From an uncultured Eubacteriales bacterium (GTDB lineage: Bacteria > Bacillota > Clostridia > Christensenellales > Aristaeellaceae), in the NCBI GenBank assembly GCA_902799465.1, contig CADCAS010000001.1, positions 80,055 to 144,054 of the forward strand: a stretch of 64,000 nt of DNA, read 5' to 3'. Position 1 is the stretch's first letter; each line of letters starts with the position of its first letter. Positions 20,999 to 37,339 of this stretch are shown here, piece by piece. Below the pieces are notes generated by a model, which saw only the letters and a program-made list of their open reading frames with translations, was not told the DNA's origin and made no database searches. A program made the translations under genes and the position numbers.

Positions 20999-21011
20999 GA
21001 TAGACACTAAA

Positions 21012-21024
21012 GACATTATATGTC
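21012..21024. promoter_or_regulatory. operator-like palindrome
   Basis: GACAT-TAT-ATGTC just downstream of the -10, with extra GACA(C/T) half-sites nearby. Confidence 0.4.
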
Positions 21025-21105
21025 CTTAAACACGGACATTCAAGACAGATAAACCCAAAATACACACGAAAAATCAGCCAATATCTACCAAACGGAGGAA
21101 TCCCA

Positions 21106-22261: not shown

Positions 22262-25072
22262 ATGGCGCACGAGTATATCGGTCTTCCAAATCTGATCAGC
22301 CTGCTGGGCGGCGAAAAGGGCAAGCCCAAGCGGGGCAAGAACGGCATGGAGCACCTGTGCCTGTGCCCCGTCCACGGCGACCGCAAGGCCAGCCTCTCCG
22401 TGGTGGAGACCAACGACCGCATACTGATGAAATGCCTCAGCCACGATTGCAGCACGGAGGCCATCTGCGACGCCATCGGCATCAAGGTGACGGAGCTGTT
22501 CAGGGGGCCCATGCCGGAGACCGCGAAGCCGGCGCGGAAGCCCGCGACGAACCGGAAGAAGGCCGCACCTCCGCCACCGGAGGAACCCCCGCCGTCGAAG
22601 GTCTACAGCAGCTACGCGGAGGCCTACGGCTACCTGGGCAAGCTGGTGTGCTGCTATCCCTACCGGGACAGCAAAGGGCAGCTCATGTACGAGGTGGCCC
22701 GGATCGTACAGAAGGATGGCGAGAAGACCTTCCGCCAGCACCGGCCCGTGAAGCCGGACGGCAGCGGGAAGTGCGCCTTCCCCATCCGCCTGGACGTGCC
22801 GGCCTCGATGCGGGAGAGCCTGATCTACCGCCAGCGGGAGATCGAGGACGCGGTGGCCGCGGGCGAGCCGGTGTACATCGTGGAGGGCGAGAAGGACGCC
22901 GACACGATGGCGAAGCTGGGCCTTCACGCCACCACCAACTCCGGAGGCGGCGGCAAGGAGCGCTGGAAGGACGGCCACACCGCCCACTTCAAGGGCGCGG
23001 CGGAGGTGTTCATCCTGCCGGACAACGACGCCACCGGCGAGGGCCACGCCCAGGAGGTCTACAAGGCGGTGGCGAAGGTCGCCAAGGCGGTCTACATCAT
23101 CCGTCTGGTGGAAGGCTACGGCGAGCTGCCGCCCAAGGGCGACTTCACCGACCTGGCGGCGCTGGCGGGAACAGAGAAAGCCGTGGAGATCCTCCACAGG
23201 CTGGAGGCGGAGGCCCGGGAGAGCCTGTGGCAGCGGGCGCAGCGGGCCTATGCGGATATTCCCGGCTACGGCATCGACGAGGGGCGGACCTGCCAGTTCG
23301 TGGACGGCGTGCCGAAGCAGCTGTGCAACTTCGTGGCGCTGCCCACGGAGATCGTGGAGACGGACAACGGCCTGACGGTGGAGAAGAGCATGAAGATCGC
23401 GGGCTGGAACCTGTTCGGCAGGCCGCTGCGGCCGGTGGTGGTGCCCATGAGCAAATTCAAGACCATGGACTGGGCGCTGGAGAGCTGGGACGTGGAGGCC
23501 AACATCATGCCGGGCAACACGGTGCGGGACAAGCTCAGGTGGGTGATGACGGAGGCGGCCTTCCGCACGGCGACGCGCAAGACGGTCTACAGCCACTGCG
23601 GTTGGCGGCAGATCGACGGGAAGTGGGTGTATCTCCACCAGGGCGGCTGCATCGGTGCGGAGGGCATCAATGTGGACATGGGCAACGAGCTGGCGGGCTA
23701 CACGCTGTCCGGCTATCCCGAGGGCATGACAGAGGTGGACGCGGCGGTGACCAGCTACAGCACCACGCTGAACATCCCGGCGCAAATCAGCGTGCCGCTG
23801 CTGGGCATCACCTACCTGGCGCCGCTGTGCGAGTTCCTGGAGCAGATGCTCTGCCCGCCCAGCTTCATCACGGCGCTGATCGGGCGGCACGGCAGCCACA
23901 AGACCAGCATCGCCTCGCTGTTTCTGAACCACTTCGGGCGGTTCGGCCTGCGGGGAATGCCCCAGAACTTCACCAGCACGGTGAATGCTGTGCGCAACGC
24001 GGCCTTTGCCGCCAAGGACACGGTGTTGCTGATCGATGACTTCTTTCCCCAGAGCGGCGCGGGGCTCCAGGAGGTGCGCAAGATGAACAACATGATGCAG
24101 CTTTTGAGCCGCGCCTTCGGTGACAAGGCCAACCGCAGCCGGCTGAACGCAGACCTTTCGACCCAGGCGGCGAAGCCATCGCGGGGCATCGCGCTGATCA
24201 CCGGCGAGAACACGCCGGACATCGGCGGCAGCGGGCAGGCCCGCATGTACATCATCAGCCTGGACAAGGGCTCCTACACCTACTCAGACGACATGGACAG
24301 GCTGCGGCAGGACGCGGAGGACGGCGCGCTTCGTCTGGCGATGGCCAGCTACATCGAATGGCTGCTGCCCCAGGCGAACGAGCTGCCCGCGCGGCTGCGG
24401 GACATGTTCACCGAATACCGCAGGAAGGCCCACAAGCTCATCGCCGGGGCGGCCACCAACGATCGCGCCGACGACGCCGCGGCCCACATCATGCTGGGGC
24501 TGACGATAATGCTGGAATGGATGGAACACCTGGGGCTGATGGAGGGCGAGGCCGTGGAGGCGCAGCTGACGGACTGGTGGAGCGTGGTGCTAAGCAACAT
24601 CCGCCAGCAGGGCGCGGAGGGCCGGGACGAATCGCCGGTGAGCATGTTCCTGACGGCGACGCGGGAGATGCTGATCAGCGGGGCCATCGCCGTGACGGAC
24701 ATCAGCGACGCAGATGTGAAAAAGGGCGGCTCCGGCAAGAGCGTGATGGTGGGCTACTGCGACGCGCAGAACTACTATTTCCTGCCCGACCAGCTGATCG
24801 GCGAGGTGACCCGGTTTTACAACAATCAGAACCGGGTGTTTCCGCTGACCAAGAACGCGCTGTTCAAGATCATGCGGGACGACGGCGTGGTGGAGCAGTG
24901 GGATGAGCGCTCCGGCCGGACGACCCGGCAGAAGAACATCAACGGCAGGAACTACCGATACCTGTGGATCCCGCGCTGGCGCATCGACGGCAAACAGCCG
25001 GCGGTGGAGCAGGTAAAGATGGACTTCAAGGAAGTAGACGATAAAGAAGTGCCGGAAGATTGGAAGGAATGA
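22262..25072 (+). CDS. phage primase/helicase (Zn-ribbon + TOPRIM + P-loop DUF927-like domain)
   Basis: Zn-binding CLCPVHGD..CLSHDC, TOPRIM VYIVEGEKDADT..ILPDNDATGEGHA, Walker A GRHGSHKTS. Confidence 0.85.
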   Translation: MAHEYIGLPNLISLLGGEKGKPKRGKNGMEHLCLCPVHGDRKASLSVVETNDRILMKCLSHDCSTEAICDAIGIKVTELFRGPMPETAKPARKPATNRKKAAPPPPEEPPPSKVYSSYAEAYGYLGKLVCCYPYRDSKGQLMYEVARIVQKDGEKTFRQHRPVKPDGSGKCAFPIRLDVPASMRESLIYRQREIEDAVAAGEPVYIVEGEKDADTMAKLGLHATTNSGGGGKERWKDGHTAHFKGAAEVFILPDNDATGEGHAQEVYKAVAKVAKAVYIIRLVEGYGELPPKGDFTDLAALAGTEKAVEILHRLEAEARESLWQRAQRAYADIPGYGIDEGRTCQFVDGVPKQLCNFVALPTEIVETDNGLTVEKSMKIAGWNLFGRPLRPVVVPMSKFKTMDWALESWDVEANIMPGNTVRDKLRWVMTEAAFRTATRKTVYSHCGWRQIDGKWVYLHQGGCIGAEGINVDMGNELAGYTLSGYPEGMTEVDAAVTSYSTTLNIPAQISVPLLGITYLAPLCEFLEQMLCPPSFITALIGRHGSHKTSIASLFLNHFGRFGLRGMPQNFTSTVNAVRNAAFAAKDTVLLIDDFFPQSGAGLQEVRKMNNMMQLLSRAFGDKANRSRLNADLSTQAAKPSRGIALITGENTPDIGGSGQARMYIISLDKGSYTYSDDMDRLRQDAEDGALRLAMASYIEWLLPQANELPARLRDMFTEYRRKAHKLIAGAATNDRADDAAAHIMLGLTIMLEWMEHLGLMEGEAVEAQLTDWWSVVLSNIRQQGAEGRDESPVSMFLTATREMLISGAIAVTDISDADVKKGGSGKSVMVGYCDAQNYYFLPDQLIGEVTRFYNNQNRVFPLTKNALFKIMRDDGVVEQWDERSGRTTRQKNINGRNYRYLWIPRWRIDGKQPAVEQVKMDFKEVDDKEVPEDWKE

Positions 25073-25103
25073 AAACCGCCAGCGCTGGCGGTTTTGAGGA
25101 GGG

Positions 25104-25316
25104 ATGACTGTGCTGGAAAATATTCAGAAGATGCAGCAGTTCCTGATAGCGTGCAGGGTGACCGAGTATCTGATGCCCGAACAGATCGCGCTGCTGTCTG
25201 TGGCGCTGGACGTGTTGAAGGAATATGTGAAAAATGCTGACGATTTGGAAAAGCTGGCCATCGACCAGGTGCTGGAAGCCCGGACGGCTGCCGGGATCGT
25301 AAGACGAGTGGACTGA
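25104..25316 (+). CDS. hypothetical phage protein
   Basis: 70-aa ORF behind a GAGGAGGG RBS. Confidence 0.55.
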   Translation: MTVLENIQKMQQFLIACRVTEYLMPEQIALLSVALDVLKEYVKNADDLEKLAIDQVLEARTAAGIVRRVD

Positions 25317-25320: not shown

Positions 25321-25344
25321 AAAAGCGTCAGCGCTGACGCTTTT
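25321..25344. repeat. 24-bp perfect palindrome, copy 1 (hairpin flanked by A4/T4; putative bidirectional terminator)
   Basis: AAAAGCGTCAGCGCTGACGCTTTT. Confidence 0.9.
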
Positions 25345-25365
25345 GAAAGGAGGAAGCCATTGAAA

Positions 25366-25902
25366 ATGAGAAACCAGGCCCCGCGGCTACCTCAAGTCCC
25401 GGAAGTGTGGCGGGATGTCCCCGGCTATGGTGGGCTGTACCAGGTCAGCAGCGAAGGCCGGGTGCGCAAGCGTCTGAAGGGCGGCGGATGGCGGTTTGTC
25501 AAGATCGTGGAAGGCAGGGGGCGCAGTGGCAAACATCAGGTGGTCAACCTCTACATGAACGGCCAGCACTTCCAGGCCACTGTACTGCGCGTGGTAGCCC
25601 TGGCATTCTATCCTGATCGGATGACCGGCGACGCTATGGCCGTCCATCGCAACGGCCTGCATGCCGACAACAGTCTGCGCAACCTGATAATCCTGACCAA
25701 CCGGGAATGCTCCCTGTGGCAGAATAACTGCCGGCGCCGGGCGGTGTGCATGATCGACAGCGAGGGCGAGCCACTGGAAATCTATCCAACCATAGCGGCA
25801 GCCTGCCGGGCAACCGGGTTGGCAAAGCAGACCATTTACCGGCACTGTAACAACAAGCCCAACCGGGGACTGCCGGACGGCGTGAGCTTTGAGTGGGCGT
25901 AG
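25366..25902 (+). CDS. HNH homing endonuclease (NUMOD4 + HNH_3 + C-terminal HTH)
   Basis: WRDVPGYGGLYQVSSEGRVRK (NUMOD4), HRNGLHADNSLRNL (HNH), ATGLAKQTIYRHC (HTH). A TTG at 25360 is an alternative start. Confidence 0.8.
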   Translation: MRNQAPRLPQVPEVWRDVPGYGGLYQVSSEGRVRKRLKGGGWRFVKIVEGRGRSGKHQVVNLYMNGQHFQATVLRVVALAFYPDRMTGDAMAVHRNGLHADNSLRNLIILTNRECSLWQNNCRRRAVCMIDSEGEPLEIYPTIAAACRATGLAKQTIYRHCNNKPNRGLPDGVSFEWA

Positions 25903-25919
25903 GGTTAGGAGGCGACGAT

Positions 25920-26138
25920 GTGAACAGGCACAAGGATCATCTGACCGCCAGCTGCCCGTATTTCCAGACTCGGTCCGACTACAAAGGCGGTCACTGGGTT
26001 CTGTGCTGTCTGGGCAGCAAGGCCTTTGAAACAGCCTGGGAGCGCAATCAATTCTATAAGACGATGTGTTGCGAGAGAAGCGACCTTTGTGAGATCCGTA
26101 CGATCGGAAAAGTAAAAAGGAGGGGACCCAAGACATGA
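25920..26138 (+). CDS. small Cys-rich hypothetical protein
   Basis: GTG start 7 nt after an AGGAGG RBS; 72 aa. Confidence 0.45.
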   Translation: MNRHKDHLTASCPYFQTRSDYKGGHWVLCCLGSKAFETAWERNQFYKTMCCERSDLCEIRTIGKVKRRGPKT

Positions 26139-27382
26139 AACAGAATTTCAAGGTGACCTACATCGACCCCAACAGACGGCAGCTCTACATCGGCGTGCAG
26201 CCGGAGGGCGGCTACTGCGGATATGCTCAGACCGGGAAGGAGACCCCGCGACGGCTGACCAACGGCTACATGAAGCGGGAAGGCTATGCCACTTATGAGG
26301 AGGCGGAGCGTGCCCTGGACCTGTACGTCTCCAATGCGCGCTACGAGCGCGCCGGCAACTGGGAGGTGCTGGTGAACGGGAAGTATGTGAGCTGGGACGA
26401 GCTGTCGAAGATCAGGATGGGTCACCTGCCTGCCCCGACCATGGCGCCTCCGGACGCGGTGGTGAGCCTGGCGAATATCGAGTACCGCATCGCCATCCAC
26501 ATCCAGGGTGCCTATGAGAACCTGCTGGAGGTCGGCCGGGCGCTCGTGGAGGCAAAGGACGCCGACCTGGTGCCGCACGGTCAATGGGAGACATGGCTGG
26601 AGAAGAACACCGGCATGAGCGACCGCAGCGCCCAGCGGCTGATGCAGGCCGCCAGGGCGACACCCGCGGGGTCCATGATGTCCAAGCTGCCGGTGACGAA
26701 GATCCAGGCCATACTGTCACTGCCTGAACCGGAACGGGAACCGATGGCGGAGAAGGCCGTGGCGGAGAACATGACCCTCCGGCAGCTGCAACAGGAGATC
26801 AGGGACCAGAAGGCGAAGGTCGAGGCGCTGGAGGGTATGAACAAGCGCATCAACAGCCGGGCGGAATCCAGCGAGCACAATGCCCGGCAAGCCCGGGTCA
26901 TGGCAGACAAGGCGATCAAGCGGGCGAATGAAGCGGAGCGCGAACGGGATGAGCTCCGGATGGCCATGGAGGAGATGGCCGGCGAGCTGGAAAAGCCCCC
27001 GACGCCCGCCGTCGGCATCAGCGAAGAAGCCCAGGCGGAGATCGACCGGCTGAACGCCGCCCTGGCCGATGCGGAGAAGATGGCCGAATACCAGGCCCGG
27101 CAGCGGGAGCAGGCCCAGCAGGAGCTGCTGGATCTCCGGACGCAGGCGGCGCGGGGCGAGGGGCAGGCGCAGGAGGATCTGACGGCGGAGGCCGTGGGCG
27201 TTGCGGCGCGGACCTTCATCACGTCGGTGGGCTATCTCCCCCACTCCGACCGGCTGCTGACCCTGCGGGAAGGCGACCGGGCGCAGATCGCGTCCTGCGC
27301 GGTGACGCTCCAGCGCTGGGCGGAGGATGTGCTGAGGATCGTCAACAGTGCCAGGGACGCGGTGGTCATTGAGGGGGTGTGA
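26135..27382 (+). CDS. DUF3102-like phage protein with a long coiled coil
   Basis: IAIHIQGAYENLLEVGRALVEAKD..HGQWETWLEKNTGMSDRSAQRLMQ resembles DUF3102; the C-terminal half is Glu/Arg/Ala-rich coiled coil. Confidence 0.65.
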   Translation: MKQNFKVTYIDPNRRQLYIGVQPEGGYCGYAQTGKETPRRLTNGYMKREGYATYEEAERALDLYVSNARYERAGNWEVLVNGKYVSWDELSKIRMGHLPAPTMAPPDAVVSLANIEYRIAIHIQGAYENLLEVGRALVEAKDADLVPHGQWETWLEKNTGMSDRSAQRLMQAARATPAGSMMSKLPVTKIQAILSLPEPEREPMAEKAVAENMTLRQLQQEIRDQKAKVEALEGMNKRINSRAESSEHNARQARVMADKAIKRANEAERERDELRMAMEEMAGELEKPPTPAVGISEEAQAEIDRLNAALADAEKMAEYQARQREQAQQELLDLRTQAARGEGQAQEDLTAEAVGVAARTFITSVGYLPHSDRLLTLREGDRAQIASCAVTLQRWAEDVLRIVNSARDAVVIEGV

Positions 27383-27385
27383 TTC

Positions 27386-27805
27386 ATGGGCGAGCTGGTG
27401 ACGATGAAGCAGAACGGCGCGCTGCCGATCCCCGCGGCAGTAGTCGAAGAGATGCAGCAGATGAGGGAAGCACTCCAGACCATGGCCGGTCTGCTGCGGG
27501 CAACCAACGAGACCATGATGCAGCTCCAGCGCCAGGTGCGGCTGTTGGAGAAGGTCACACCCTCCCAAGCCAGCGCCATGAACAGGGCCATCCGGGAACG
27601 GGCCACGGAGCTGTGCGCCATCTACATGGCGCCCGCCTGCGACAAGGCCGTTGCCACAGCCATCCGCAAGGCCGTGAAGCTGCGCTTCGGCGCGTCCACC
27701 GCGAAGGATCTGCCGCGGTGCGAGTATGAGGTGGCCATGGCACAGGTCCGGGGCTGGGATGATTACAAGGTTATGAAGGGCATTCGGGAGAAGTTACGAC
27801 CATGA
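27386..27805 (+). CDS. hypothetical phage protein (ORF6C-like)
   Basis: 139-aa ORF with coding GC3 bias and tight spacing in the operon. Confidence 0.6.
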   Translation: MGELVTMKQNGALPIPAAVVEEMQQMREALQTMAGLLRATNETMMQLQRQVRLLEKVTPSQASAMNRAIRERATELCAIYMAPACDKAVATAIRKAVKLRFGASTAKDLPRCEYEVAMAQVRGWDDYKVMKGIREKLRP

Positions 27806-27954
27806 TCTATGATGATACGTGTACTAAAATCTGTGACACCTGCCGCCACTACTTGGGCGGCGGGTGCTGCCGGATCAACCTGGAGGCCGAATGCGGCAAG
27901 GGCGAGTTTGAGGCATGGGAACCAAAAGAACTGGAGGAAGACCATGGACATTGA
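27802..27954 (+). CDS. small CxxC protein (50 aa; below the ORF-track cut-off)
   Basis: Hand translation MIYDDTCTKICDTCRHYLGGGCCRINLEAECGKGEFEAWEPKELEEDHGH; ATGA overlap with the preceding stop. Confidence 0.45.
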   Translation: MIYDDTCTKICDTCRHYLGGGCCRINLEAECGKGEFEAWEPKELEEDHGH

Positions 27955-28213
27955 CAAGGCAGCAGAAGCTCGGTCCCGCATGGTGTCCGGCTTCTATGAG
28001 TTCGTCGGCGGGCTGGTGGATCTTGTGACTCTGGCCTTCGCAGACCTGGCCAAGACGTTGGGTACTTTCGATTGGAGCGGGCTGGCAAAGCTGAAAGAGT
28101 CAGACCCGGATCTGTTCAGCTGGACAGCCAGTGGCCCGATCCGGCGCGTGCAGCTGCGGCGGGCGAGGGCTTTGATGGAGGAGAGAAAATGGCAGAATTA
28201 TACAAGACACTGA
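27944..28213 (+). CDS. hypothetical phage protein
   Basis: Internal ATG (MDIDKAAEARS...) of track ORF 27809..28213, preceded by GGAGGAAG. Confidence 0.5.
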   Translation: MDIDKAAEARSRMVSGFYEFVGGLVDLVTLAFADLAKTLGTFDWSGLAKLKESDPDLFSWTASGPIRRVQLRRARALMEERKWQNYTRH

Positions 28214-28398
28214 CGCCGGCATTCCGGCAGCAGATTCTTGACAGCCTGGATCAGCAGCTGCGGGAGCTGGACGCTTGCCAGGAAAACGCGCTGGTGGCCG
28301 TGCAGCGATTGGGGCTTTCCAGCTATAAGGCCCTTTTCAAGGCGCTGCCCGATGGCTATCCGGTTCCGATCACAAAGGGAGGACGCTATGACGGATAA
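28189..28398 (+). CDS. hypothetical phage protein
   Basis: MAELYKTLTPAFRQQ... behind a GGAGGAGAG RBS. Confidence 0.5.
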   Translation: MAELYKTLTPAFRQQILDSLDQQLRELDACQENALVAVQRLGLSSYKALFKALPDGYPVPITKGGRYDG

Positions 28399-28681
28399 AT
28401 ATAAGGGTTACCACGAAAGCGTCAACATAGAGCAGTTCGCCAACGCCGTGCAGCTGCTCGACGATGCCACCCGCTACGACAGTGAGATGCGGTTGAGCAA
28501 TATGGAGTTGGTAGCCCTGGCGCGGATCCTGGCCTATGAGGGCGTCCATGGAGATGGCGGGCACTTCGCCCACGCGGTGGATTTTCTGTGGATGGCCCAC
28601 AGGATCAGCACGGCGTCGAAGCTGATGCTGCTGGATCTTATGGGCAACGATCTGATGGACAAGATTAACAATGGAAAATAA
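28388..28681 (+). CDS. hypothetical phage protein
   Basis: MTDKYKGYHES... behind an AAGGGAGG RBS. Confidence 0.55.
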   Translation: MTDKYKGYHESVNIEQFANAVQLLDDATRYDSEMRLSNMELVALARILAYEGVHGDGGHFAHAVDFLWMAHRISTASKLMLLDLMGNDLMDKINNGK

Positions 28682-28898
28682 GATGGACCACGATTATGAG
28701 CTATTCGCCATCGTGCTGAACAGTAAGCCCGCCACCTGCGAGACCTGCCCGTTCTTCGGCCATTCGATCCGCAGCACATACCTGGGCTATTGCACCCCGC
28801 TGAACAAGCGGATGCGGCGCGATGATTTCACCATGGGAACCCTGGGCACCTGCCCGATAAGAGTGCACGAAGAGAAGGCGAAAGCATATGAGCCATGA
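28671..28898 (+). CDS. small CxxC protein
   Basis: 75 aa; TCETCPFFGH...YCTP...GTCP. Confidence 0.5.
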   Translation: MENKMDHDYELFAIVLNSKPATCETCPFFGHSIRSTYLGYCTPLNKRMRRDDFTMGTLGTCPIRVHEEKAKAYEP

Positions 28899-29061
28899 AG
28901 AGAGAAAAAGATATTTTAGGGTGGAGTGTATAGGAACTTTGCCTGATCGAACAAACGAGGGTTATACGATTAAGCAATACATAGTAATGATCAGGAAGCC
29001 GCTCAGACCGATCCGATACATGCAGCTTCGGAAAGTGATGGCAATGATGAAGGAGAGATGA
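28888..29061 (+). CDS. hypothetical small basic protein (57 aa; below the track cut-off), low-GC segment
   Basis: Hand translation MSHEERKRYFRVECIGTLPDRTNEGYTIKQYIVMIRKPL...; its stop overlaps the next start (ATGA). Confidence 0.35.
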   Translation: MSHEERKRYFRVECIGTLPDRTNEGYTIKQYIVMIRKPLRPIRYMQLRKVMAMMKER

Positions 29062-29249
29062 CCATGGACAAGAAAGATTTGAATGACAATGGTCGTGAAG
29101 ACGTGCTCAATGACATAGAGGCAGCTATTAATGGGCTGAAGAGTGTGGAACACTACGGGTTATTTGTTCAGCATGAGGATGAATGCAAGGAAGGCATTCA
29201 AATGGCCATTCGATTACTGAGAGGAATGAAGGAGGTATTGAAGGGATGA
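29058..29249 (+). CDS. hypothetical phage protein
   Basis: 63-aa ORF; ATGA coupling on both sides. Confidence 0.5.
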   Translation: MTMDKKDLNDNGREDVLNDIEAAINGLKSVEHYGLFVQHEDECKEGIQMAIRLLRGMKEVLKG

Positions 29250-29698
29250 ACAAGGTTATACTGATCGGCAACCTGGCGAACGACCCGGAGGCGTTCACCA
29301 CGCAGAGCGGGATCAGCCGCTCCACCTTCCGACTGGCGGTGCAGCGGCGGTATGCCAACGCCCAGGGCGTCCGGGAGGCGGACTTTCTGACCATCGTGGC
29401 CTGGCGAAATACCGCGGACTTCTGCAACCGCTACCTGACGAAGGGGCGGAAGATCGCCGTGGAGGGCAGCATCACGGTGCGCAGCTACGACGGGCAGGAC
29501 GGGCAGCGGCACTGGGTGACGGAGATCATCGCCGACAGCGTGGAGGCCGTCGGCGGCAGAAAGAGCGAGGATCCCAGCCCGGAGGAGCCGCCGGCACCGA
29601 AACCATCGGAGGACCGGCCGGAACAGCAGCGGATGGACATGTACAATAATGCTCCCGATGATTTCACGGAAGTGGACGACGACGAATTGCCTTTTTAG
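29246..29698 (+). CDS. ssb: single-stranded DNA-binding protein
   Basis: MNKVILIGNLANDPE... OB-fold N-terminus and acidic tail DDDELPF. Confidence 0.93.
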   Translation: MNKVILIGNLANDPEAFTTQSGISRSTFRLAVQRRYANAQGVREADFLTIVAWRNTADFCNRYLTKGRKIAVEGSITVRSYDGQDGQRHWVTEIIADSVEAVGGRKSEDPSPEEPPAPKPSEDRPEQQRMDMYNNAPDDFTEVDDDELPF

Positions 29699-29723
29699 TT
29701 GACAGATGACGGAGGGCGGCAGC

Positions 29724-30197
29724 ATGACACTGACAGCGATGGAGATCCTGGAGCGATGCAGGCGGGCGGAGGGCGAAAAGCGCCGTCTGAAGGAACGGGC
29801 CGATATGATCCGGGACACCGCCGGCCACATGACGGCGAGCCTGGACGGCATCGGCGCGCGGAGCACCGGCGCCGGCGACCGCATGGTGGGACTGATGGCC
29901 AGGCTCGAGGAGGCAGAGCAGGCCCTGAAGCAGCGGGACCAGGAATACACCGCGGAGGTCGCCGCCGCCTGCCAGCTGCTGGACCGGCTGCCGCCCCTGG
30001 AGTGCGGTATCATGACGCGCTATTATATCCGGGGTGAAACGCTCAGAGCCATCGCAACTGAGATGGGATACAGCTATGGGTATATCTGCAACAGCAAGAC
30101 GGCCGCATGCCGGCAGCTGAAGAAGCTGGGCGAGGGCGACATTATGCGCGTGCTGCCGCAATGGTACATAATCGAAGATGAAAAGCGTCAGCGCTGA
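29724..30197 (+). CDS. sigma-70 region-4-like phage transcriptional regulator (RinA/ArpU/DUF1492-type candidate late activator)
   Basis: C-terminal HTH LPPLECGIMTRYYIRGETLRAIATEMGYSYGYICNSK. GGAGGG RBS before the ATG at 29724. The stop codon lies inside palindrome copy 2. Confidence 0.6.
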   Translation: MTLTAMEILERCRRAEGEKRRLKERADMIRDTAGHMTASLDGIGARSTGAGDRMVGLMARLEEAEQALKQRDQEYTAEVAAACQLLDRLPPLECGIMTRYYIRGETLRAIATEMGYSYGYICNSKTAACRQLKKLGEGDIMRVLPQWYIIEDEKRQR

Positions 30198-30203
30198 CGC
30201 TTT
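30181..30203. repeat. 24-bp palindrome, copy 2 (23/24)
   Basis: AAAAGCGTCAGCGCTGACGCTTT(a). Confidence 0.9.
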
Positions 30204-30211
30204 AAGAAGGG

Positions 30212-30541
30212 ATGGTATCAATGGAGAAAAAGACCAATCTGACGGTTACGATCAAGGGAACCTGTGAGGATGAAAATGGCGAGATGCACATCGTAGATGC
30301 CAAGTATGAAAACTTGGATTTCGTATTCCTGAACGCATTCAAGTTTCTCCCCAACGATCAATGCAGTCATGAGGTCGCGACGATGGGTGGTTCTTCGGGT
30401 TACATGTGGTCAAAAATCATAAAGACTATCATCGAAACTGTGGATGAGGACGGAGATTTTTTCCTTGTGATACTGAAGAGGGCCTTAACGGAATTGACGA
30501 TGAAAAGCGTCAGCGCTGACGCTTTTGAAGAAAAAATGTGA
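30212..30541 (+). CDS. hypothetical protein (moron-like, lower GC), bracketed by palindrome copies 2 and 3
   Basis: 109-aa ORF with AT-richer codons than its neighbours; its 3' end reads through palindrome copy 3 (KSVSADAF). Confidence 0.5.
   Translation: MVSMEKKTNLTVTIKGTCEDENGEMHIVDAKYENLDFVFLNAFKFLPNDQCSHEVATMGGSSGYMWSKIIKTIIETVDEDGDFFLVILKRALTELTMKSVSADAFEEKM
30503..30526. repeat. 24-bp palindrome, copy 3
   Basis: AAAAGCGTCAGCGCTGACGCTTTT. Confidence 0.9.
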
Positions 30542-30609
30542 ACCTATGTGAGTAAGATGTGAATAAATGTGAATCGATGTGAACTTGATGTGAACCCCCC
30601 TCATGTGAT
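30536..30609 (+). repeat. array of seven direct ATGTGA(A) repeats with helical phasing
   Basis: Repeat starts at 30536, 30546, 30557, 30567, 30577, 30588 and 30603, giving spacings of 10, 11, 10, 10, 11 and 15. Confidence 0.85.
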
Positions 30610-30614
30610 ATATA
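30585..30614 (+). promoter_or_regulatory. candidate late promoter overlapping the repeat array
   Basis: TTGATG - 18 nt - TGaTATATA (extended -10). Confidence 0.4.
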
Positions 30615-30802
30615 TAAAATGACCGATGCGGGGAAAACAGATGGCGGGACGCTGGGGATTCCACGGCCGCCGGCTGCGACAGCTTTCTTCAAGGTTTACT
30701 TCCTCTCAATTTTGATTCGACCAACCATGCCCTATCCCCCGCACGGTCACCATCTTGCGTCAAGCGTGGCTCCGACACACGCCTGGCGCTTTATTATACC
30801 TC

Positions 30803-30826
30803 AAAAGCGTCAGCGATGACGCTTTT
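30803..30826. repeat. 24-bp palindrome, copy 4 (one central mismatch)
   Basis: AAAAGCGTCAGCGaTGACGCTTTT. Confidence 0.85.
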
Positions 30827-30847
30827 CATCATTTTGGGGGTGTTTGG

Positions 30848-31018
30848 ATGGTGCTTGATGTGACAAAGGTGCCGGACTGTGACAACTGCTTCCTGAAGGA
30901 ATCCTGCGCGGACGCGGTGCCGGGGCAGTTCTGCACGGCGTGGATCAGCCGGGAGCCGCCGAAGCGGGAGCCGGATCCGAATGAGGCGTGGAGGCGGGGC
31001 GAGGACGTGAGCTTCTGA
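30848..31018 (+). CDS. small CxxC protein
   Basis: MVLDVTKVPDCDNCFLKESCADAVPGQFC...; its stop overlaps the HNH start. Confidence 0.5.
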   Translation: MVLDVTKVPDCDNCFLKESCADAVPGQFCTAWISREPPKREPDPNEAWRRGEDVSF

Positions 31019-31332
31019 TGGACTACAAGGAAAGCCTTCCCTTCTACCACTCCGCGGCCTGGAAGCGGGTGCGGGCGCTGGCGATGCAGCGGGATCAGGG
31101 GATGTGCCAGGACTGCATGGACCGGCTGCGGGCGGGCTACGGCATCAAGCCGAACCGGGCGCAAATGGTTCATCACATCATCCCGCTGGAGGAGCGGCCG
31201 GACCTGGCACTGGACCTGAACAACCTTCGCAGCCTGTGCAATGAGTGCCATAATAGACAGCACCCTGAGAAGGGGCGGGACCGGCGGCAGGCGAAGGAAG
31301 TGCCCGCGGGGATGCGGGTCATCAAGGTATAA
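31018..31332 (+). CDS. HNH endonuclease (packaging-associated)
   Basis: CQDC...HHIIPLEE...NLRSLCNECHN; lies immediately upstream of terS/terL. Confidence 0.88.
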   Translation: MDYKESLPFYHSAAWKRVRALAMQRDQGMCQDCMDRLRAGYGIKPNRAQMVHHIIPLEERPDLALDLNNLRSLCNECHNRQHPEKGRDRRQAKEVPAGMRVIKV

Positions 31333-31346
31333 GGGAGGATTACATC

Positions 31347-31721
31347 ATGAACGAGGTTCTGAAGAACGCGCACTTTGAGCGGATCACCGACGAGAAGGCC
31401 CGGAGGGTCTATGAATACTTATGCGACGCCTGCGACAGGCGCGTGGGCGGCATCACCGACGCCGATCAGATGCTGGTGGCGGATTACGCCTACGCCGAAC
31501 AGGTGAAGGGCGTGCTGATGGACGACATCGCCAAGCGCGGCATCGGCCAGGAACGCAGCAACGGGCGGCAGAAATACTGGGCCGACAACAAGAGCCTGGC
31601 GCACCTGCGTTCCTACTGCGATCAGCAGCGCAAGCAGCTGGCGGAGCTTCGGCTGACGCCGAACGGGCGCAAGGCGGAAAGCGTGGATCTGGATGACGAC
31701 TTCGACAGGTTCCCCGATTGA
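31347..31721 (+). CDS. terS: terminase small subunit (P27-family-like)
   Basis: 124 aa between HNH and terL; YAYAEQV...LRLTPNGRK pattern. Confidence 0.8.
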   Translation: MNEVLKNAHFERITDEKARRVYEYLCDACDRRVGGITDADQMLVADYAYAEQVKGVLMDDIAKRGIGQERSNGRQKYWADNKSLAHLRSYCDQQRKQLAELRLTPNGRKAESVDLDDDFDRFPD

Positions 31722-33423
31722 AAGATGTCTAAGTTACGCCCGTAGGGCGGTCAACGGGGAAATCGTCGTATGTGAAAAGACCAGGATGGCCTGCCGCCGC
31801 TTCCTGGACGATCTGGAAAAGAGCAAGGATCCCGGATACCCGTGGGTGTTCGACGAGCATAAGGCCGCGCGGCCGGTGGACTTCATGGAGAAGTTCCTGG
31901 TGCCCACCAAGGGCGACTACGACCGCATGGTGCTGATGGACTGGCAGTGCTTCATCGAGTGCAACCTGTTCGGCTGGGTGGACAGACAGACGGGGCTCCG
32001 GCGGTTCAACGAGGCGCTGATCCTGGTGGGCACCGGCAACGGCAAGAGCACGATGATGGCCGGAAACGCCACCTTCATGGCCTGCAAGGACGGGGAGAAA
32101 GGCGCGGAGATCTACCTGCTGGCCAACTCCAAGGACCAGGCGGGCATCGTGTTCAATGAGTGCAAGGCGCAGATCGAGGCCAGCCGGTTCCTGGCGCCGC
32201 GGTTCCGGACGCTGCGGGACGGTGTCTACTACGACAAGGCCAACGCCACCATCCGGCACCGAAGCAGCGACTCCAAGCGATTGGACGGCCTGAACCCGCA
32301 CGGTGCGATCTTCGACGAGATCCACGAATACCGGGATTTCAAGCTGCTGAACATCATCAAGAAGAAGACCGTCAAGCGCACCCAGCCGCTGATCATGTAC
32401 ATCACCACCATGGGCAACGTGCTGGACGGGCCGCTGGCGTACTACTACGGCCAGTTCACCGACGCGCTGCTGGGACACCTGGACCCGCTGGTGGCGGACC
32501 GGATGTTCGCGTTCATCGCGGAGATGGACGCCACGGACGACATCGAGGACAGCAGCCTGTGGATCAAGGCGAATCCTTCCATCGGGCAGACGCTGGAGCT
32601 TTCACGGCTGGAGGAGCAGTGGAAGCGCGACAAGCTGATCCCCAGCGAGCGCGCCAACTTCATCTGCAAGCAGCTGAACATCATGGTGAACGCCGACGAC
32701 ATGGCCTTCGTGCAGCCGGAGGTCATCAAGCGGAACCGTGAGACCATCCCGGAGGAAAGTCTTTTGGGGCGGCGCTGCTACGGCGGCTTCGACCTTAGTA
32801 ACCGCGAGGACTTCACCGCTGCGGCGCTGGAGTTCCCGCTGGACGACGGGCGCATCTTCGTCAAGCTTCACTCCTGGGTGCCGCGGCGGAAGGTGGAGCT
32901 GGACCAGGAGAAGATCGACTACTACGGCCTGGCGATGAAGGGACATCTGACCATCGTGGAGGGCGAATACATCCGGCAGGAAGATGTGTTCGACTGGTTC
33001 GTCCAGCAGTCTAAGCTCTACGAGCTGGTGACCATCGGCTACGATCCGGCCAACGCCACGCGGCTTCGGCAGATGCTGGAGAACAAGGGCTTCGACTGCC
33101 AGGTGGTCAGGCAAGGGCCGATCACGCTGAACGACCCGATGAAGGACATCAAGGAGTTGCTGCTGGCCGGCAAGGTCGTCAGCAACGCCGACCCGATGCT
33201 GGCGTGGTACACGGACAACGTGCGCATCTCCGGCGAGCGCCGGCACGCCGACAAGGAGAACTGGATGCCCACCAAGCGCAACAAGTTCCGGAAGATCGAC
33301 GGCTTCATGGCCTGGCTGGACGCTCACTGCGTCCGCATGGACAAGCAGCCGGCGGGCATGGTGGTGACGCCGCCGCGAATCCGCGTGGTCGATCTGGGCA
33401 GCAGGAGGCACGCGCGCATATAA
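31693..33423 (+). CDS. terL: terminase large subunit
   Basis: Walker A LILVGTGNGKST, Walker B/coupling IFDEIHEY, and nuclease-domain C-terminus. Confidence 0.93.
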   Translation: MTTSTGSPIERCLSYARRAVNGEIVVCEKTRMACRRFLDDLEKSKDPGYPWVFDEHKAARPVDFMEKFLVPTKGDYDRMVLMDWQCFIECNLFGWVDRQTGLRRFNEALILVGTGNGKSTMMAGNATFMACKDGEKGAEIYLLANSKDQAGIVFNECKAQIEASRFLAPRFRTLRDGVYYDKANATIRHRSSDSKRLDGLNPHGAIFDEIHEYRDFKLLNIIKKKTVKRTQPLIMYITTMGNVLDGPLAYYYGQFTDALLGHLDPLVADRMFAFIAEMDATDDIEDSSLWIKANPSIGQTLELSRLEEQWKRDKLIPSERANFICKQLNIMVNADDMAFVQPEVIKRNRETIPEESLLGRRCYGGFDLSNREDFTAAALEFPLDDGRIFVKLHSWVPRRKVELDQEKIDYYGLAMKGHLTIVEGEYIRQEDVFDWFVQQSKLYELVTIGYDPANATRLRQMLENKGFDCQVVRQGPITLNDPMKDIKELLLAGKVVSNADPMLAWYTDNVRISGERRHADKENWMPTKRNKFRKIDGFMAWLDAHCVRMDKQPAGMVVTPPRIRVVDLGSRRHARI

Positions 33424-33453
33424 AAAAGACCCCGAAGGGTCTTTTTTGATCGG

Positions 33454-33666
33454 TCAAACCCATGACAGGTGGCGCTTCTGCTGCATGCAGTCCACCAGAT
33501 AGTAGTTGATCAGCGTCTGATAGGGAATGCCCGTGCTCTCTGCCTGGGTCTTGAAGTATTCCACGGTTTCGGCGTCGATGTTGATGGTTACCTGCTTCTT
33601 CTGTCGGGCAGCGTAGGGATTCTTGACGGCTTTGGAAAAATCGTACTCTTCACGCATACGGAACAC
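33454..33666 (-). CDS. brnA: BrnA-type antitoxin (CopG/RHH-like)
   Basis: EYDFSKAVKNPYA...TINIDAETVEYFK..GIPYQTLIN; lies downstream of brnT. Confidence 0.8.
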   Translation of the reverse strand: MFRMREEYDFSKAVKNPYAARQKKQVTINIDAETVEYFKTQAESTGIPYQTLINYYLVDCMQQKRHLSWV

Positions 33667-33669
33667 CTC

Positions 33670-33957
33670 CTAACCCTGGTCGTATTGCGCGGACTCGTGG
33701 GCGGTCGCCTTTCTGGCGGAAATGATGCGGATGACGCGGTCGCCGTCCCTCAGGCAGTGGCAGACGACCAGCATTCTGGCCCGGATGCTGAAGCCCAGGA
33801 TGATGAACCGCTCCTCCGTCTCGGAATGATCGGGATCGTCGATCACCAATGCCTCCGGGTCCTCAAACACCGTGCTGGCTTCCTCGAAGCTCACGCCGTG
33901 TTTTCTGATGTTAATCGATGCCTTGTCGGCATCCCACTCAAATCTCATGCCGTTCAT
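33670..33957 (-). CDS. brnT: BrnT-type toxin (DUF497)
   Basis: FEWDADKASINIRKHGVSFEEASTVFEDP...ERFIILG...IRIISARKAT. Start is at 33957 or 33948. Confidence 0.85.
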   Translation of the reverse strand: MNGMRFEWDADKASINIRKHGVSFEEASTVFEDPEALVIDDPDHSETEERFIILGFSIRARMLVVCHCLRDGDRVIRIISARKATAHESAQYDQG

Positions 33958-33981
33958 AATTATATTATAATTATGAACGGC
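33949..33981. promoter_or_regulatory. 33-bp perfect palindrome over the brnT start and promoter (candidate TA operator)
   Basis: GCCGTTCATAATTATA-T-TATAATTATGAACGGC; it contains TATAAT in both orientations. Confidence 0.6.
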
Positions 33982-34001
33982 TGAAAAGTCAAGCGGAGGG
34001 A

Positions 34002-35246
34002 ATGAATATGTGGCCATTCAAAAGGCGGAAAAACGAGGTCAAGGCGCGGGACGAGCCCCGGCAGGTGAACCGCAACCGGAATCTGCGGATGATCAACCGG
34101 CCGCGGGCGGACAACACGATCCAGGGGAACGAGGCCATCTACGCGGCGGTGTCGCGGATCGCGAACACCATGGGCATGATCCCGATGCACATCTACAAGG
34201 ACTACGCCATACAGCCGAAGCATCCGCTGGAGCGGCTGCTGGCGCTGGAGCCGAATCCGAACTTCACGGCCTTCGGCTTCCGGCAGACCATGGAGGTGCT
34301 GCGCAACACCGAGGGCAACGCCTACGCGCTGCGGGTATTGGACAGGTTGGGCGGGCTTCTGCGGCTGGACATCCTGAACCCCACGCGGGTGCAGCCCATG
34401 CGGGATCCGGCGGACGGCTCGACCTGGTATCAGATCATGCTGGACGATGGGGTGGCCTACACCATACCCGGCTACATGGTGCTGAACCTCCGGCACATGT
34501 CGGCCAACGGGGAAAAGGGCATCCGGCCCATCGACGTGCTGCGCAAAAGCCTGGACTACGACGCGCAGGTGAAGGCGCTGTCGCTGGACCAGCTGGACGG
34601 CGTGAACCACGGCATCATGCTGACGGTGCCCAACAGCGGCCTCAGCCAGGAGCAGAAGGACGACCTGGTGGATCGCTTCCTGGAGACCTATGAAAAAAGC
34701 AACCGGTCCGTGGTGGTGCTGGAGGGCGGCCTGACGGCGACGAACTTCTCCTCCTCACCGGTGGACAGCCAGCTGCTGGACGTGGAAAGGATCACCCGGA
34801 ACCGCGTGGCGACGGTCTACAACCTGCCGCCCCATATGCTGGGCGATTATTCGGACACGTCCTTCTCCACGGCCGAGCAGCAGATGCAGGAGTTTTTGCA
34901 GCTGACCATCATCCCCATCGTTCAGCAGTGGGAGGACGAGTTCAACCGGAAGCTGCTGACGCCGGAGGAGTTCGCCGTCGGCTACCGCATCCGCTTCGAC
35001 ACCGACGCGCTGACCCGTGCGGACACGCTGGCGACGGCGCAGACCAACCAGATGGCGATTCGCGGCGGCTGGCGCAAGCCCAACGAGGTCAGACAGAGCG
35101 AATACCGCCCGCCGGACCCCTACGGCGATCACCTGATGAGCAGCCGCGACATACTGCCGCTGCGCATCATGGTGGACAATCCCGAATTGCTTTTGGGGGC
35201 GGCTTCGGCGGTGAAGCAGGAGAAGAAGGAAGGTGAGAACAAGTGA
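34002..35246 (+). CDS. portal protein (HK97-family-like)
   Basis: 414 aa after terL; NEAIYAAVSRIANTMG..., LEGGL..., PPHMLGD motifs. Confidence 0.88.
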   Translation: MNMWPFKRRKNEVKARDEPRQVNRNRNLRMINRPRADNTIQGNEAIYAAVSRIANTMGMIPMHIYKDYAIQPKHPLERLLALEPNPNFTAFGFRQTMEVLRNTEGNAYALRVLDRLGGLLRLDILNPTRVQPMRDPADGSTWYQIMLDDGVAYTIPGYMVLNLRHMSANGEKGIRPIDVLRKSLDYDAQVKALSLDQLDGVNHGIMLTVPNSGLSQEQKDDLVDRFLETYEKSNRSVVVLEGGLTATNFSSSPVDSQLLDVERITRNRVATVYNLPPHMLGDYSDTSFSTAEQQMQEFLQLTIIPIVQQWEDEFNRKLLTPEEFAVGYRIRFDTDALTRADTLATAQTNQMAIRGGWRKPNEVRQSEYRPPDPYGDHLMSSRDILPLRIMVDNPELLLGAASAVKQEKKEGENK

Positions 35247-36061
35247 GACGGTTTTGGAATTTCCGAAACGATGTGAACCAGCCCGAGGACGGTGTGCTGA
35301 CGGTGGACGGCGTGCTGATGACGGACGACTGGTGGGACGACGATGACGGCGTGACATCCTCGCGGGCGTTCAAAAAGGCGCTGGCGAAGTACCGGAACGT
35401 CACGGTGGTCATCAACAGTCCCGGCGGCGACGTGATGGCCGGGGCGGAGATGTACTCCGCGCTGAGGGAGCATTCCACCAGCGGGAAGGGCAGGGTCACG
35501 GTGAAGATCACGGCCCTGGCGGCCAGCGCGGCGAGCGTCGTGGCCATGGCGGGCGACGAGATCCTGATGAGCCCGGTGGCGTACATGATGGTCCACAACC
35601 CGTGGAGCTTCATGGCCGGCAACGCCGACGACATGCGCAAGGAGGCCGACGCGCTGGACGAGATCGCGGAGGGCATCATCAACGCCTACCAGCTGCGCAC
35701 CCACAAGAGCCGGGCGAAGCTGAAGGAGCTGATGGACGGCGAGAGCTACATGAACGCCCGGCGGTGCATCGCGGAGGGCTTCGCGGACGGGCTGCTGTAC
35801 GAGGCTCCGATGGAGCCCGATGAAGAGGAACCGGAGGAGGACGACCCCGACGAGGAAGAGGGCGTGCTGATGAAGGCCAAGGACTTCGGCATCGGTCGGG
35901 CCGTGGCCTGCGCGATAGCGCACGGGATGAAGGTGAACCCGCTGCGGACGCGCAGCGCAAAGGCTCCGAACGCTGCGGAAATGCAGCATGAGGACAGCCT
36001 TGAGGATGAGATCCGGCTGGACATCGCCATGCGGGCGGAAATGATCGCAAGCCTGTTTTGA
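35243..36061 (+). CDS. ClpP-like (S14) prohead protease
   Basis: INSPGGDVMAG...ALAASAASVVAMAGD...MMVHNPW; acidic C-terminal extension. Confidence 0.9.
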   Translation: MRRFWNFRNDVNQPEDGVLTVDGVLMTDDWWDDDDGVTSSRAFKKALAKYRNVTVVINSPGGDVMAGAEMYSALREHSTSGKGRVTVKITALAASAASVVAMAGDEILMSPVAYMMVHNPWSFMAGNADDMRKEADALDEIAEGIINAYQLRTHKSRAKLKELMDGESYMNARRCIAEGFADGLLYEAPMEPDEEEPEEDDPDEEEGVLMKAKDFGIGRAVACAIAHGMKVNPLRTRSAKAPNAAEMQHEDSLEDEIRLDIAMRAEMIASLF

Positions 36062-36063
36062 TC

Positions 36064-36087
36064 AAAAGCGTCAGCGCTGACGCTTTT
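36064..36087. repeat. 24-bp palindrome, copy 5
   Basis: AAAAGCGTCAGCGCTGACGCTTTT, between the protease and capsid genes. Confidence 0.9.
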
Positions 36088-36109: not shown

Positions 36110-37339
36110 ATGAACGAGCTTCAGAGACTCATGAACGAGATCACCAATCTGGGCAATCAGATCCGGGCGGCGGCGATGGCGCTGGCGAACCGGGCGATGG
36201 ACAGCAATGTGAGCATCGACGACGTGAAGAAGGACCAGGCCGCGCTGGATGCGATGAAGCAGCGGCTGGCGGCGCTCCAGGCGGCCTACGATGTGCAGGT
36301 TCAGACGGCTGCGGACGGTGTTCAGCCCACCGGCAGCGAGGGCCAGAAGAAGAGCCTGAAGGACATGCTGAAGTCCAACGAGTACGCGCGGGCGTTTGCC
36401 TATGCCATCCAGAACGGCATCGGCCGCAAGAACGGCCGGGGCAACGAGCAGGTGAAGATCCTCTACGACGCGCTGACCGAATCCGGCGGCACGCCCGTGG
36501 GCAGCGACGGCGGCTTCCTGGTGCCGGAGGACATCGACCACTCCATCCGCGAGCTGCGCAGGACGCTGAACCCGCTGGCGCAGTATTTCGGCGAGGAGAA
36601 CGTCACCGCGCCCACCGGCTGGCGCGTGGTGGACACCGCGCCCACGAGGGGCCTGGTGGACGTGAACGAGATGGGCCAGATCAACGCGAACGACGACAAG
36701 CCCTTCTTCAAGAAGGTGCCCTACAGCACCAGCAAGAAGGCGCTGATCCTGCCCGTGTCCAACGAGCTGGCCACCGACAACGTGGCGAACCTGTTCGCGT
36801 ACCTGAGCCAGTGGTTCGCCAAGAAGCTGGTGATCACCGAGAACGCCATGCTGGTGGCGCTGCTGCGGTCCCTGACCGCCGTGGACATCTCCACCGACCC
36901 GCTGGCGGGCATCAAGAAGGCGCTGAACGTGGACCTCGACCCGGCCATCGCCGCGGTCTCCACGATCATCACCAACCAGTCGGGCTTCAACGAGCTGGAC
37001 AACCTGCTGGACGACAACAAGCGTCCCCTGCTGCAGCCCGATCCCACCAACGCCACCGTGAACCGCATCAAGGGCCACACCGTGGCCGTGGCGAGCGACG
37101 CCACGCTGCCGAACGTCACCAGCGGCGAGGGCCAGAGCGCTACCTCTGCCGCGGATATCTTCATCGGCGACGGCAAGGAGTTCGCCACCCTGTTCCGCGT
37201 GGGCGGCTTCGAGCTGGCGAGCACTGACATCGGTGGCAGCGCCTGGCGCACCAATTCCACCGAGATCCGCGGCATCGCGCGCCTGGGCGTGACCCTGTTC
37301 GACGACAAGGCCATGGTCCGCCGCAGCCTGACGGTCTGA
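36110..37339 (+). CDS. major capsid protein (HK97 fold)
   Basis: 409 aa with an N-terminal coiled-coil delta domain; sits after the protease. Confidence 0.9.
   Translation: MNELQRLMNEITNLGNQIRAAAMALANRAMDSNVSIDDVKKDQAALDAMKQRLAALQAAYDVQVQTAADGVQPTGSEGQKKSLKDMLKSNEYARAFAYAIQNGIGRKNGRGNEQVKILYDALTESGGTPVGSDGGFLVPEDIDHSIRELRRTLNPLAQYFGEENVTAPTGWRVVDTAPTRGLVDVNEMGQINANDDKPFFKKVPYSTSKKALILPVSNELATDNVANLFAYLSQWFAKKLVITENAMLVALLRSLTAVDISTDPLAGIKKALNVDLDPAIAAVSTIITNQSGFNELDNLLDDNKRPLLQPDPTNATVNRIKGHTVAVASDATLPNVTSGEGQSATSAADIFIGDGKEFATLFRVGGFELASTDIGGSAWRTNSTEIRGIARLGVTLFDDKAMVRRSLTV

Follow-up and report, generated by a model that had tools for sequence, protein, structure and literature searches.

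A repeated 24-bp palindrome in a lineage of Clostridia prophages and the phage DUF3102 protein as its candidate binding partner

What keeps several near-identical copies of one 24-bp palindrome at the gene borders of a prophage? The question is raised by a 64,000-nt stretch of DNA from an uncultured Eubacteriales bacterium (assembly GCA_902799465.1, contig CADCAS010000001.1, positions 80,055 to 144,054), referred to here as the window, in which gene scans identify a prophage. A sequence-only reading of the window had reported five copies and offered four possible roles for them, namely a terminator recognised by a phage antiterminator, a site for a dimeric protein, a recombination boundary and an endonuclease target. 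The dimeric-protein site is the best supported of the four, but the partner it had suggested, the product of 29724-30197, is not the one proposed here. On balance, the palindromes are probably the cognate DNA sites, or operators, of the phage's own DUF3102 protein (PF11300), a predicted ParB-fold dimer encoded at 26135..27382 on the plus strand, 800 bases downstream of one copy.

Palindrome copies in the window and in related phages

The exact 24-mer AAAAGCGTCAGCGCTGACGCTTTT occurs three times in the 64 kb, at 25321..25344, 30503..30526 and 36064..36087, and two further copies differ from it by one mismatch, at 30181..30204 (last T to A) and 30803..30826 (centre C to A), which bears out the five copies first reported. 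Allowing up to three mismatches yielded no other match in the 64 kb, and 100 sequence shuffles gave none at all, so that none is expected by chance. The earlier statement that the sequence occurs nowhere else in the window holds at this level of similarity, but it missed a sixth, diverged family member, AAAACCGCCAGCGCTGGCGGTTTT, which a palindrome scan located at 25072..25095 and which has the AAAA-N4-CAGCGCTG-N4'-TTTT layout of the other five.

All window copies occupy or overlap the short gap that separates a stop codon from the ribosome-binding site (RBS) that comes next, two of them overlapping the ends of open reading frames (ORFs), and the sequences that flank them are mutually unrelated. 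The sixth member starts 1 base after the stop of the gene for a 936-aa Toprim/primase-like protein, before the RBS of ORF 25104-25316, and the 25321 copy lies 4 nt past the stop of this ORF and ahead of the RBS of the NUMOD4 gene, as had been noted; it is the orthologous 'after primase' site, present in many relatives. The 30181 copy, whose T tract is weakened to TTTA, holds the final five codons and the stop codon of the gene for the sigma70_r4 protein (29706-30197), in agreement with the earlier remark that the TGA of this sigma-like gene falls inside the palindrome. The 30503 copy falls within ORF 30212-30541, at its 3' end, and directly precedes an ATGTGA repeat array; copies do flank this ORF, as described before, and the ORF reads through the second of them. 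The 30803 copy, with the centre GCGA, follows the terminator hairpin of the late leader and is the sole copy with a T-rich tail. Finally, the 36064 copy sits, as first described, between the prohead protease (35243-36061) and major capsid (36110-37339) genes.

Outside the window, the exact 24-mer was found in 16 stretches of IMG/VR, in 32 metagenome stretches and, among 185,579 species genomes, in four single places (three Bacillota/Clostridiales assemblies and one Burkholderia). Genes of relatives of the window phage adjoin it in 31 of the 32 metagenome stretches, the lone exception (L198) having the site inside a DUF3102-like ORF, and at least three of the four species-genome matches adjoin genes homologous to those of the window phage. 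According to tblastn with the window proteins, nearly all carriers are relatives of this phage, with 35-95% protein identity, and their copies occupy the same kinds of junction: after the primase, between SSB and the sigma-like gene, after the sigma-like gene, after terL, between protease and capsid, and after the capsid gene. Since nearly all carriers are such relatives, at the same junction kinds, the palindrome is not a repeat of the host; the host flanks, which amount to about 24 kb of sequence outside the prophage, contain no copy, and a host-wide element resembling repetitive extragenic palindromes was rejected. The sequence-only reading had named a scattering of the 24-mer over host chromosomes as the outcome that would speak against a phage element, and the searches came out negative. 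The palindrome is thus real and specific to this phage lineage.

A survey of eighty terL-centred loci of relatives gave the family consensus AAAA-GCG-N-C-NN-CG-NN-G-N'-CGC-TTTT, in which the inner positions vary symmetrically between phages (CAGCGCTG, CAACGTTG, CTGCGCAG, CCACGTGG and CGACGTCG). Within a genome one variant usually prevails: centres are identical in 24 of 53 within-genome pairs (45%), compared with 177 of 2575 between-genome pairs (7%), a difference reached in 0 of 5000 permutations. The position between genes is likewise a family trait: a long ORF stops within 60 nt upstream in 56 of the 73 unique members (median 3 nt), and an RBS with a start codon follows within 80 nt in 64 of them (median 10 nt).

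Three relatives are informative in this respect. Locus L145 has three identical but imperfect copies. In locus L107, four copies have an asymmetric centre, and within a single co-directional operon two of them point one way and two the other; a fifth (L107:7694) is a chimera, its left half being of the phage's own hairpin type and its right half, together with about 90 nt of flank, of the window type as found in L019. The third, L185, a relative with 91% identity, carries a site behind the capsid gene that is missing from the window, lacks the cassette made of a hairpin plus ORF 25104, and has an indel directly after the protease-capsid site. These cases indicate that the copies are related by copying or are held to one sequence, that they work in either orientation and that they mark the borders of recombination and indels.

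Some copies have peculiar surroundings. One whole metagenome contig (L247, 4618 bp) is a perfect inverted repeat whose exact centre is AAAAGCGCCAACGTTGGCGCTTTT; fold-back or template switching at the palindrome probably produced it as an artefact. At L205:6136 and L208:647 the 3' half and its flank (GCTGACGCTTTTGAATG) are tandemly repeated after the exact 24-mer, a slippage-type duplication. At L107:7722, L019:5596 and L019:7506, in two contexts that are unlike in other respects, the palindrome is followed by a further shared element, CGCCCCGCGCTACT..CGG.AAGCGCGGG, which also forms a hairpin. Four loci (L003:94-113, L008:5079-5098, L015:4162-4181 and L166:15256-15275) have, at their 'after capsid' junction, the exact 24-mer accompanied by another hairpin with GGGG/CCCC outer arms and just the core GTCAGCGCTGAC in common with it.

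Association with DUF3102 genes

The link to a protein family came from a scan of 2.9 M viral contigs of IMG/VR with the pattern AAAANNNNCAGCGCTGNNNNTTTT. This gave a second class of matches, with complementary N4, all located inside an ORF that encodes a DUF3102 homologue. In 27 loci the AAAA-N4-CAGCGCTG-N4'-TTTT palindrome falls within a DUF3102-like ORF, and others are found in DUF3102-encoding phages, whereas none of the 13 matches with non-complementary N4 had a DUF3102-like ORF in the fetched locus. The in-frame internal site encodes S-K-A-P-A-L-A-L-L-G-K, and its arms stay complementary though the peptide changes (KAPALALL, KRTALSVL, KVPALGLL).

The same design is found in cultured phages whose homologues were retrieved by protein similarity alone. 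Six of seven such genes contain one perfect palindrome of 22-30 bp, which begins, where measured, 12-30 nt past the codons of the putative recognition helix; in the cultured transposable phages the DUF3102 gene lies just upstream of the transposase. The carriers are ORF13 of phage B3 (CAAAACGGACAACGTTGTCCGTTTTG), gp10 of BcepMu (TTCAAAAGCGGCGTTAACGCCGCTTTTGAA), gp41 of phiE255, and genes of Microcystis phage Mae-JY22, Stenotrophomonas phage Bhz63 and E. coli phage PhiKM. The IMG/VR lineages L041, L198, L236, L238 and L242 likewise carry an internal palindrome, that of L198 being the window 24-mer with three symmetric nucleotides added on each side. A Burkholderia Mu-like prophage has the exact 24-mer at a distance of 69 nt from a DUF3102-like ORF; next comes a second palindrome whose centre is likewise CCAGCGCTGG. 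The association of the palindrome with DUF3102 therefore extends across phyla.

In addition, the putative recognition helix and the half-site change together. The helix motif A-Q-R is paired with AAAA-GCG, A-R-R or A-R-T with AAAA-CGG/CGC, and A-H-R with AAAA-GTC, and this pairing recurs in several lineages, a cyanophage among them. In the Clostridia family it is the DUF3102 type rather than terL similarity with which the apex type goes, and the predicted apex C[TC]GCGC[AG]G was found in two newly fetched prophages with an AQKLM helix (L244, L245). A simple rule, by which L or M as the fourth helix residue goes with a GCGC centre and C, V or I with ACGT, suits most groups and was rejected; we do not rely on it because L248, L105, L160 and L225/6 fail.

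Predicted fold of the DUF3102 protein

The AlphaFold model of the window DUF3102 protein (pLDDT 80) begins with a beta domain that is not conserved, continues with a helical domain (residues ~110-210) that resembles the DNA-binding domain of ParB/Noc, and then forms a long coiled coil (215-340). Codons at 26621..26659 on the plus strand specify the putative recognition helix, S-D-R-S-A-Q-R-L-M-Q-A-A-R (residues 163-175). All top Foldseek matches in the PDB are Spo0J, ParB or Noc proteins (probability 0.97-1.0; TM score of 0.75 to 6y93, the Noc DNA-binding domain), and among them are complexes of Spo0J with parS and of Noc with its site. When PDB sequences were searched with the DUF3102 profile, nothing significant came back, and one of 30 homologues matches the Pfam family PF17762 (HTH_ParB) weakly (E=0.0015). 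The model thus assigns to the protein a ParB/Spo0J/Noc-type DNA-binding fold, a similarity at the level of the fold only. Pfam scans of the window protein and 29 homologues gave no ParBc match, the N-terminal ParB/Srx CTPase domain, and the N-terminal 100 residues of the window protein are missing from many homologues. No ParA-like gene was seen among the early genes scanned, and the integrase gene adjoins tRNA genes.

Likeness to known systems and proposed role

The window system resembles the ParB-parS, Noc-NBS and KorB-OB pairs in the predicted DNA-binding fold, in perfect palindromes with A/T-rich outer and G/C-rich inner parts, and in the presence of several dispersed copies per replicon, six in the window. 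As in the DUF3102 genes of the transposable phages, these pairs can have a site within the protein's own gene (parS lies inside B. subtilis spo0J), and their specificity shifts symmetrically between relatives. In contrast, the window protein has no CTPase domain and no ParA, its phage integrates and is not a plasmid, the DUF3102-type site is longer (24-30 bp versus 13-16 bp), DUF3102 has a long coiled coil, and the window sites lie in stop-to-RBS gaps.

Another parallel is the temperate phage N15, whose IR sites are scattered across its genome, including near the late genes. N15 has four separate palindrome copies, IR1-4, bound by the ParB-family protein SopB (PMC7205306). Like the window phage it is temperate with several separate copies of one palindrome, but N15 is a linear plasmid prophage that encodes SopA and uses its sites for partition, whereas the window phage has an integrase, a tRNA-adjacent end and no ParA. 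Cluster A mycobacteriophages carry stoperators, near-identical sites spread in large number over short intergenic regions (PMC9283540, PMC6550527), which are like the window sites in placement and in the block to elongating polymerase that we propose here. Stoperators differ in being asymmetric and read by a monomeric immunity repressor that also binds the early promoter operator, whereas the window sites are symmetric, unlike the repeats of the switch region, and paired with another protein family.

The reading of the palindromes as operators explains their perfect dyad symmetry, centre included, their uniformity within genomes and their symmetric change between genomes, as well as orientation independence, retention inside coding sequence and the association across phyla. 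We infer, from the comparison of sequences and the structural model, that DUF3102 binds as a dimer, a helix-turn-helix protein with a coiled-coil tail of which each subunit would read one 12-nt half-site, AAAAGCGTCAGC. In the transposable phages a single site lies within the DUF3102 gene, directly upstream of the transposase genes, where bound protein could exert negative feedback by blocking elongation. In the Clostridia prophage lineage the site would have been relocated to short stop-to-RBS gaps, the only room in a packed genome, and then multiplied.

What binding would do, probably by acting as a roadblock or insulator, is speculative. Bound protein may block or insulate transcription in both directions at module borders, which in the window would be those between the primase, the small ORF and the DUF3102 operon, between the sigma-like gene, ORF 30212, the late promoter with its leader and the packaging genes, and between protease and capsid. 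The palindrome can also fold as a weak bidirectional terminator hairpin, and bound DUF3102 may reinforce the hairpin-U4 terminator encoded by the same sequence in RNA. We prefer this combined roadblock-plus-attenuator mechanism because the same sequence inevitably makes an A4-hairpin-U4 structure in RNA. More tentatively still, and with rather more doubt than confidence, DUF3102 and the palindrome might form a previously unrecognised phage regulatory module, a ParB-fold roadblock, insulator or DNA-bridging organiser without CTPase and ParA, which would limit transposase expression in B3/BcepMu-type phages and would have expanded to genome-wide module-border sites in gut and rumen Clostridia prophages, with protein specificity and sites co-evolving.

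The proposal gives PF11300, a domain of unknown function, a testable predicted function and a predicted binding site; judging from titles and abstracts, the literature searched apparently touches on PF11300/DUF3102 in passing only. The family spans textbook transposable phages (B3, BcepMu, phiE255) and an abundant uncultured lineage of rumen and gut Clostridia prophages, offering a natural series of proteins and sites for studying the evolution of ParB-fold specificity and a possible control step upstream of the transposase genes of Mu-like phages. It would also account for short identical palindromes at module borders, which are at the same time recombination points and fold-back sites in assemblies.

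Several observations weigh against the operator reading. The Foldseek E-values are modest (0.01-0.05), and the downstream function of ParABS systems is not transferable to DUF3102, as the latter has neither the ParB CTPase domain nor a ParA partner. The covariation of helix and half-site is inflated by shared ancestry, because independent transitions are few and an internal site is linked to its gene, and it has misfits: in L248, L105, L160 and L225/6 an AQRLM helix occurs together with an ACGT centre, and L133 and L145 deviate as well. L113, L120, L123 and L158 encode DUF3102 and have 0-2 sites in about 20 kb, and the DUF3102 gene of the window itself contains no internal site of this design; the bare core CCAGCGCTGG that it does contain, at 27310..27319, may be there by chance, since it is offset from the position of the internal palindrome in the homologues of transposable phages. 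Finally, family hairpins of other relatives have GNRA or non-palindromic loops, G.U pairs and loop insertions that keep the stem (L131, L168), which looks more like selection for a hairpin than for a duplex site.

Alternative explanations

The last of these points leads to the strongest alternative, in our judgement an unlikely one that nevertheless deserves weight, namely that the palindrome is an RNA element only: an intercistronic bidirectional intrinsic terminator or attenuator, or an mRNA-stabilising hairpin, with no dedicated protein, which late transcription passes by general antitermination from the late leader. Single copies fold as stable G+C-rich hairpins of -11.8 to -15.3 kcal/mol (z about -3; -15.3 kcal/mol for the sixth member) flanked by A4 and U4, and the medians of 3 nt to the upstream stop and 10 nt to the RBS suit such an element. 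Some relatives have no palindrome at orthologous junctions, where stop and RBS are 5-25 nt apart. The orthologous protease-capsid copies in relatives have long T runs, GNRA or non-palindromic loops and G.U pairs on the sense strand, and the late operon comes after a conserved leader, about 170 nt long, with a terminator at its end. A role as terminator or attenuator is plausible, given these hairpin-like variants at orthologous junctions and the structured late leader with its own terminator.

The strand-specific signals are small. Contiguous T runs are slightly longer than A runs (1.30 versus 0.95, p=0.002), T and A counts over 8 nt do not differ (p=0.44), and the wobble-pair test gave about five G.U against three A.C, few counts and a weak result. 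The window copies share with bidirectional intrinsic terminators a G+C-rich stem, an A tract upstream and a short U tract downstream, but they have only four U after the stem (three at 30181), sit inside operons or ORFs, are identical to each other and are tied to one protein family. A terminator consensus scan accepts the 30803 copy only. The three classical terminators of the phage (40281, 52285 and 56253) have long T runs and, as the sequence-only reading had observed, are unrelated in sequence. Its proposal of a bidirectional terminator thus stands as far as fold and position go, but has against it the four-U tract and the same design inside coding sequence of other phages. An RNA-only role leaves unexplained the identity of copies within genomes, the 24/24 identity between phages whose flanking proteins share 35-40%, the palindromic loops, the cross-phylum link to DUF3102 and the retention of the A4/T4-flanked design within coding sequence upstream of transposase genes.

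Improbable to a greater degree is a palindrome that serves mainly as a recombination linker, its shared 24-bp identity driving cassette insertion and module exchange and alone keeping the copies uniform. A precedent exists in the PeSL (promoter-stem-loop) cassettes of T4-type phages, stem-loop repeats between stop codon and Shine-Dalgarno sequence, next to variable ORFs, where recombination leads to indels and swaps (PMC2839356, PMC4122927). The window copies resemble them in position, and recombination and indels occur at the repeats in L107 and L185; PeSL cassettes differ in having a strong early promoter and being loosely conserved composites, whereas the 24-bp palindrome is exact and has a candidate protein partner. 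We found no promoter-like hexamers at the window copies, where the gaps are too short. Besides the L107:7694 chimera and the cassette missing from L185, hairpin pairs flank ORF 25104-25316 and ORF 30212-30541, and hairpins mark the ends, at 36091 and 33426, of the homology blocks shared by the window and L185. An exact look-up of the ORF 30212 product had no match, and its homologues led to L185-L188. Nine of 70 homology ends fall within 12 nt of the seven hairpins, an enrichment confounded by gene borders and duplicate loci. Selection for recombination is, moreover, second-order; filled and empty sites in the window and L185 differ by the replacement of whole intergenic stretches, and no clean 24-bp insertion was found; and the association with DUF3102, the helix/half-site correlation and the single intragenic sites are not explained. 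The earlier suggestion of a recombination boundary, now joined by the L107 chimera and the indels that abut copies in L185, is therefore best kept as an evolutionary side-effect.

It is very improbable that the palindrome is the site of the sigma70_r4 protein (29706-30197), or that a phage antiterminator specifically recognises it as a terminator, both of which had been suggested before; nothing was found that points to such an antiterminator. One copy overlaps the stop of the sigma70_r4 gene in many relatives and copies bracket the late promoter region, but each relative has its own array downstream of the gene, resembling the late promoter -35 box (ATGTGAA in the window, GATGTTATAT in L105). 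This repeat array is a more natural target for a region-4 protein, and it differs between phages that have an identical palindrome. A search with the sigma-like protein by itself returned relatives in three loci only.

Least probable of all are operators of a CI-type repressor spread through the genome, a target of the neighbouring NUMOD4-HNH endonuclease or a generic host repeat. Identical sites in short gaps do recall stoperators, and in several relatives the 'after primase' copy precedes a NUMOD4 gene. Against this, the switch region (20874-21105) shows direct repeats of GACAYTNAAGACA but nothing that looks like a half-site of the palindrome, the exact site is also present in phages that lack NUMOD4 (L140/L142/L199), and the species genomes and host flanks gave the counts reported above. 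The earlier suggestion of an endonuclease target finds no support.

Other features of the prophage

An integrase gene (17767-19125, minus strand) lies beside two tRNA genes and is followed by a gene for an XRE-type repressor (20349-20873, minus strand), identified by gene scan. The early operon comprises an HTH (helix-turn-helix) gene, the gene for the 936-aa Toprim protein (22262-25072), the NUMOD4 gene and the genes for DUF3102, SSB and the sigma70_r4 protein, after which come HNH, terS, terL, portal, protease, capsid and tail genes, endolysin and holin. PHROGs gave no functional assignment for the small early ORFs, and the phage collection contained no cultured close relative of the window phage.

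Three direct repeats of GACAYTNAAGACA lie at 20869-21047, between the XRE repressor gene and the early operon, and are likely repressor/Cro operators. The best early-promoter match, TTGACA ... TAGAAT at 20969-20998, has its spacer filled by a run of about 17 A, and length variation of this homopolymer could switch the promoter.

At 30537-30830, seven phased ATGTGA(A) repeats with 10-11 bp spacing lead into the late promoter, TTGATGTGAAC ... TGTGATATATA, from which the conserved structured leader follows. This leader is alignable across 12 relatives, with compensatory changes at 8 of 26 predicted pairs, and Rfam holds no family for it or for the palindrome. Array, promoter and leader together resemble the antitermination set-up of the lambda PR'/6S type. 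The first gene of the late operon is a small Cys-rich ORF at 30830-31018 (PDCxxC ... C ... FC..W), whose product may bind zinc; a similar ORF precedes the HNH gene in inspected relatives (e.g. L106, L166).

An Rfam match to RT-18 RNA at 50394-50494 (64.7 bits, above the gathering score) was considered as a sign of a retroelement and rejected, since the next gene (50581-51630) encodes a CHAP/PG-binding/SH3 endolysin and no reverse transcriptase was seen nearby. Between terL and portal there is a lower-GC insert (33422-33984), with an A6/T6 hairpin (33422-33447) at one border and an AT-rich palindrome of 33 bp (33949-33981) at the other; the minus strand has strong promoter-like sites there (33992-33959). 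In close relatives terL and portal are 5-16 nt apart, or the family palindrome stands in place of the insert.

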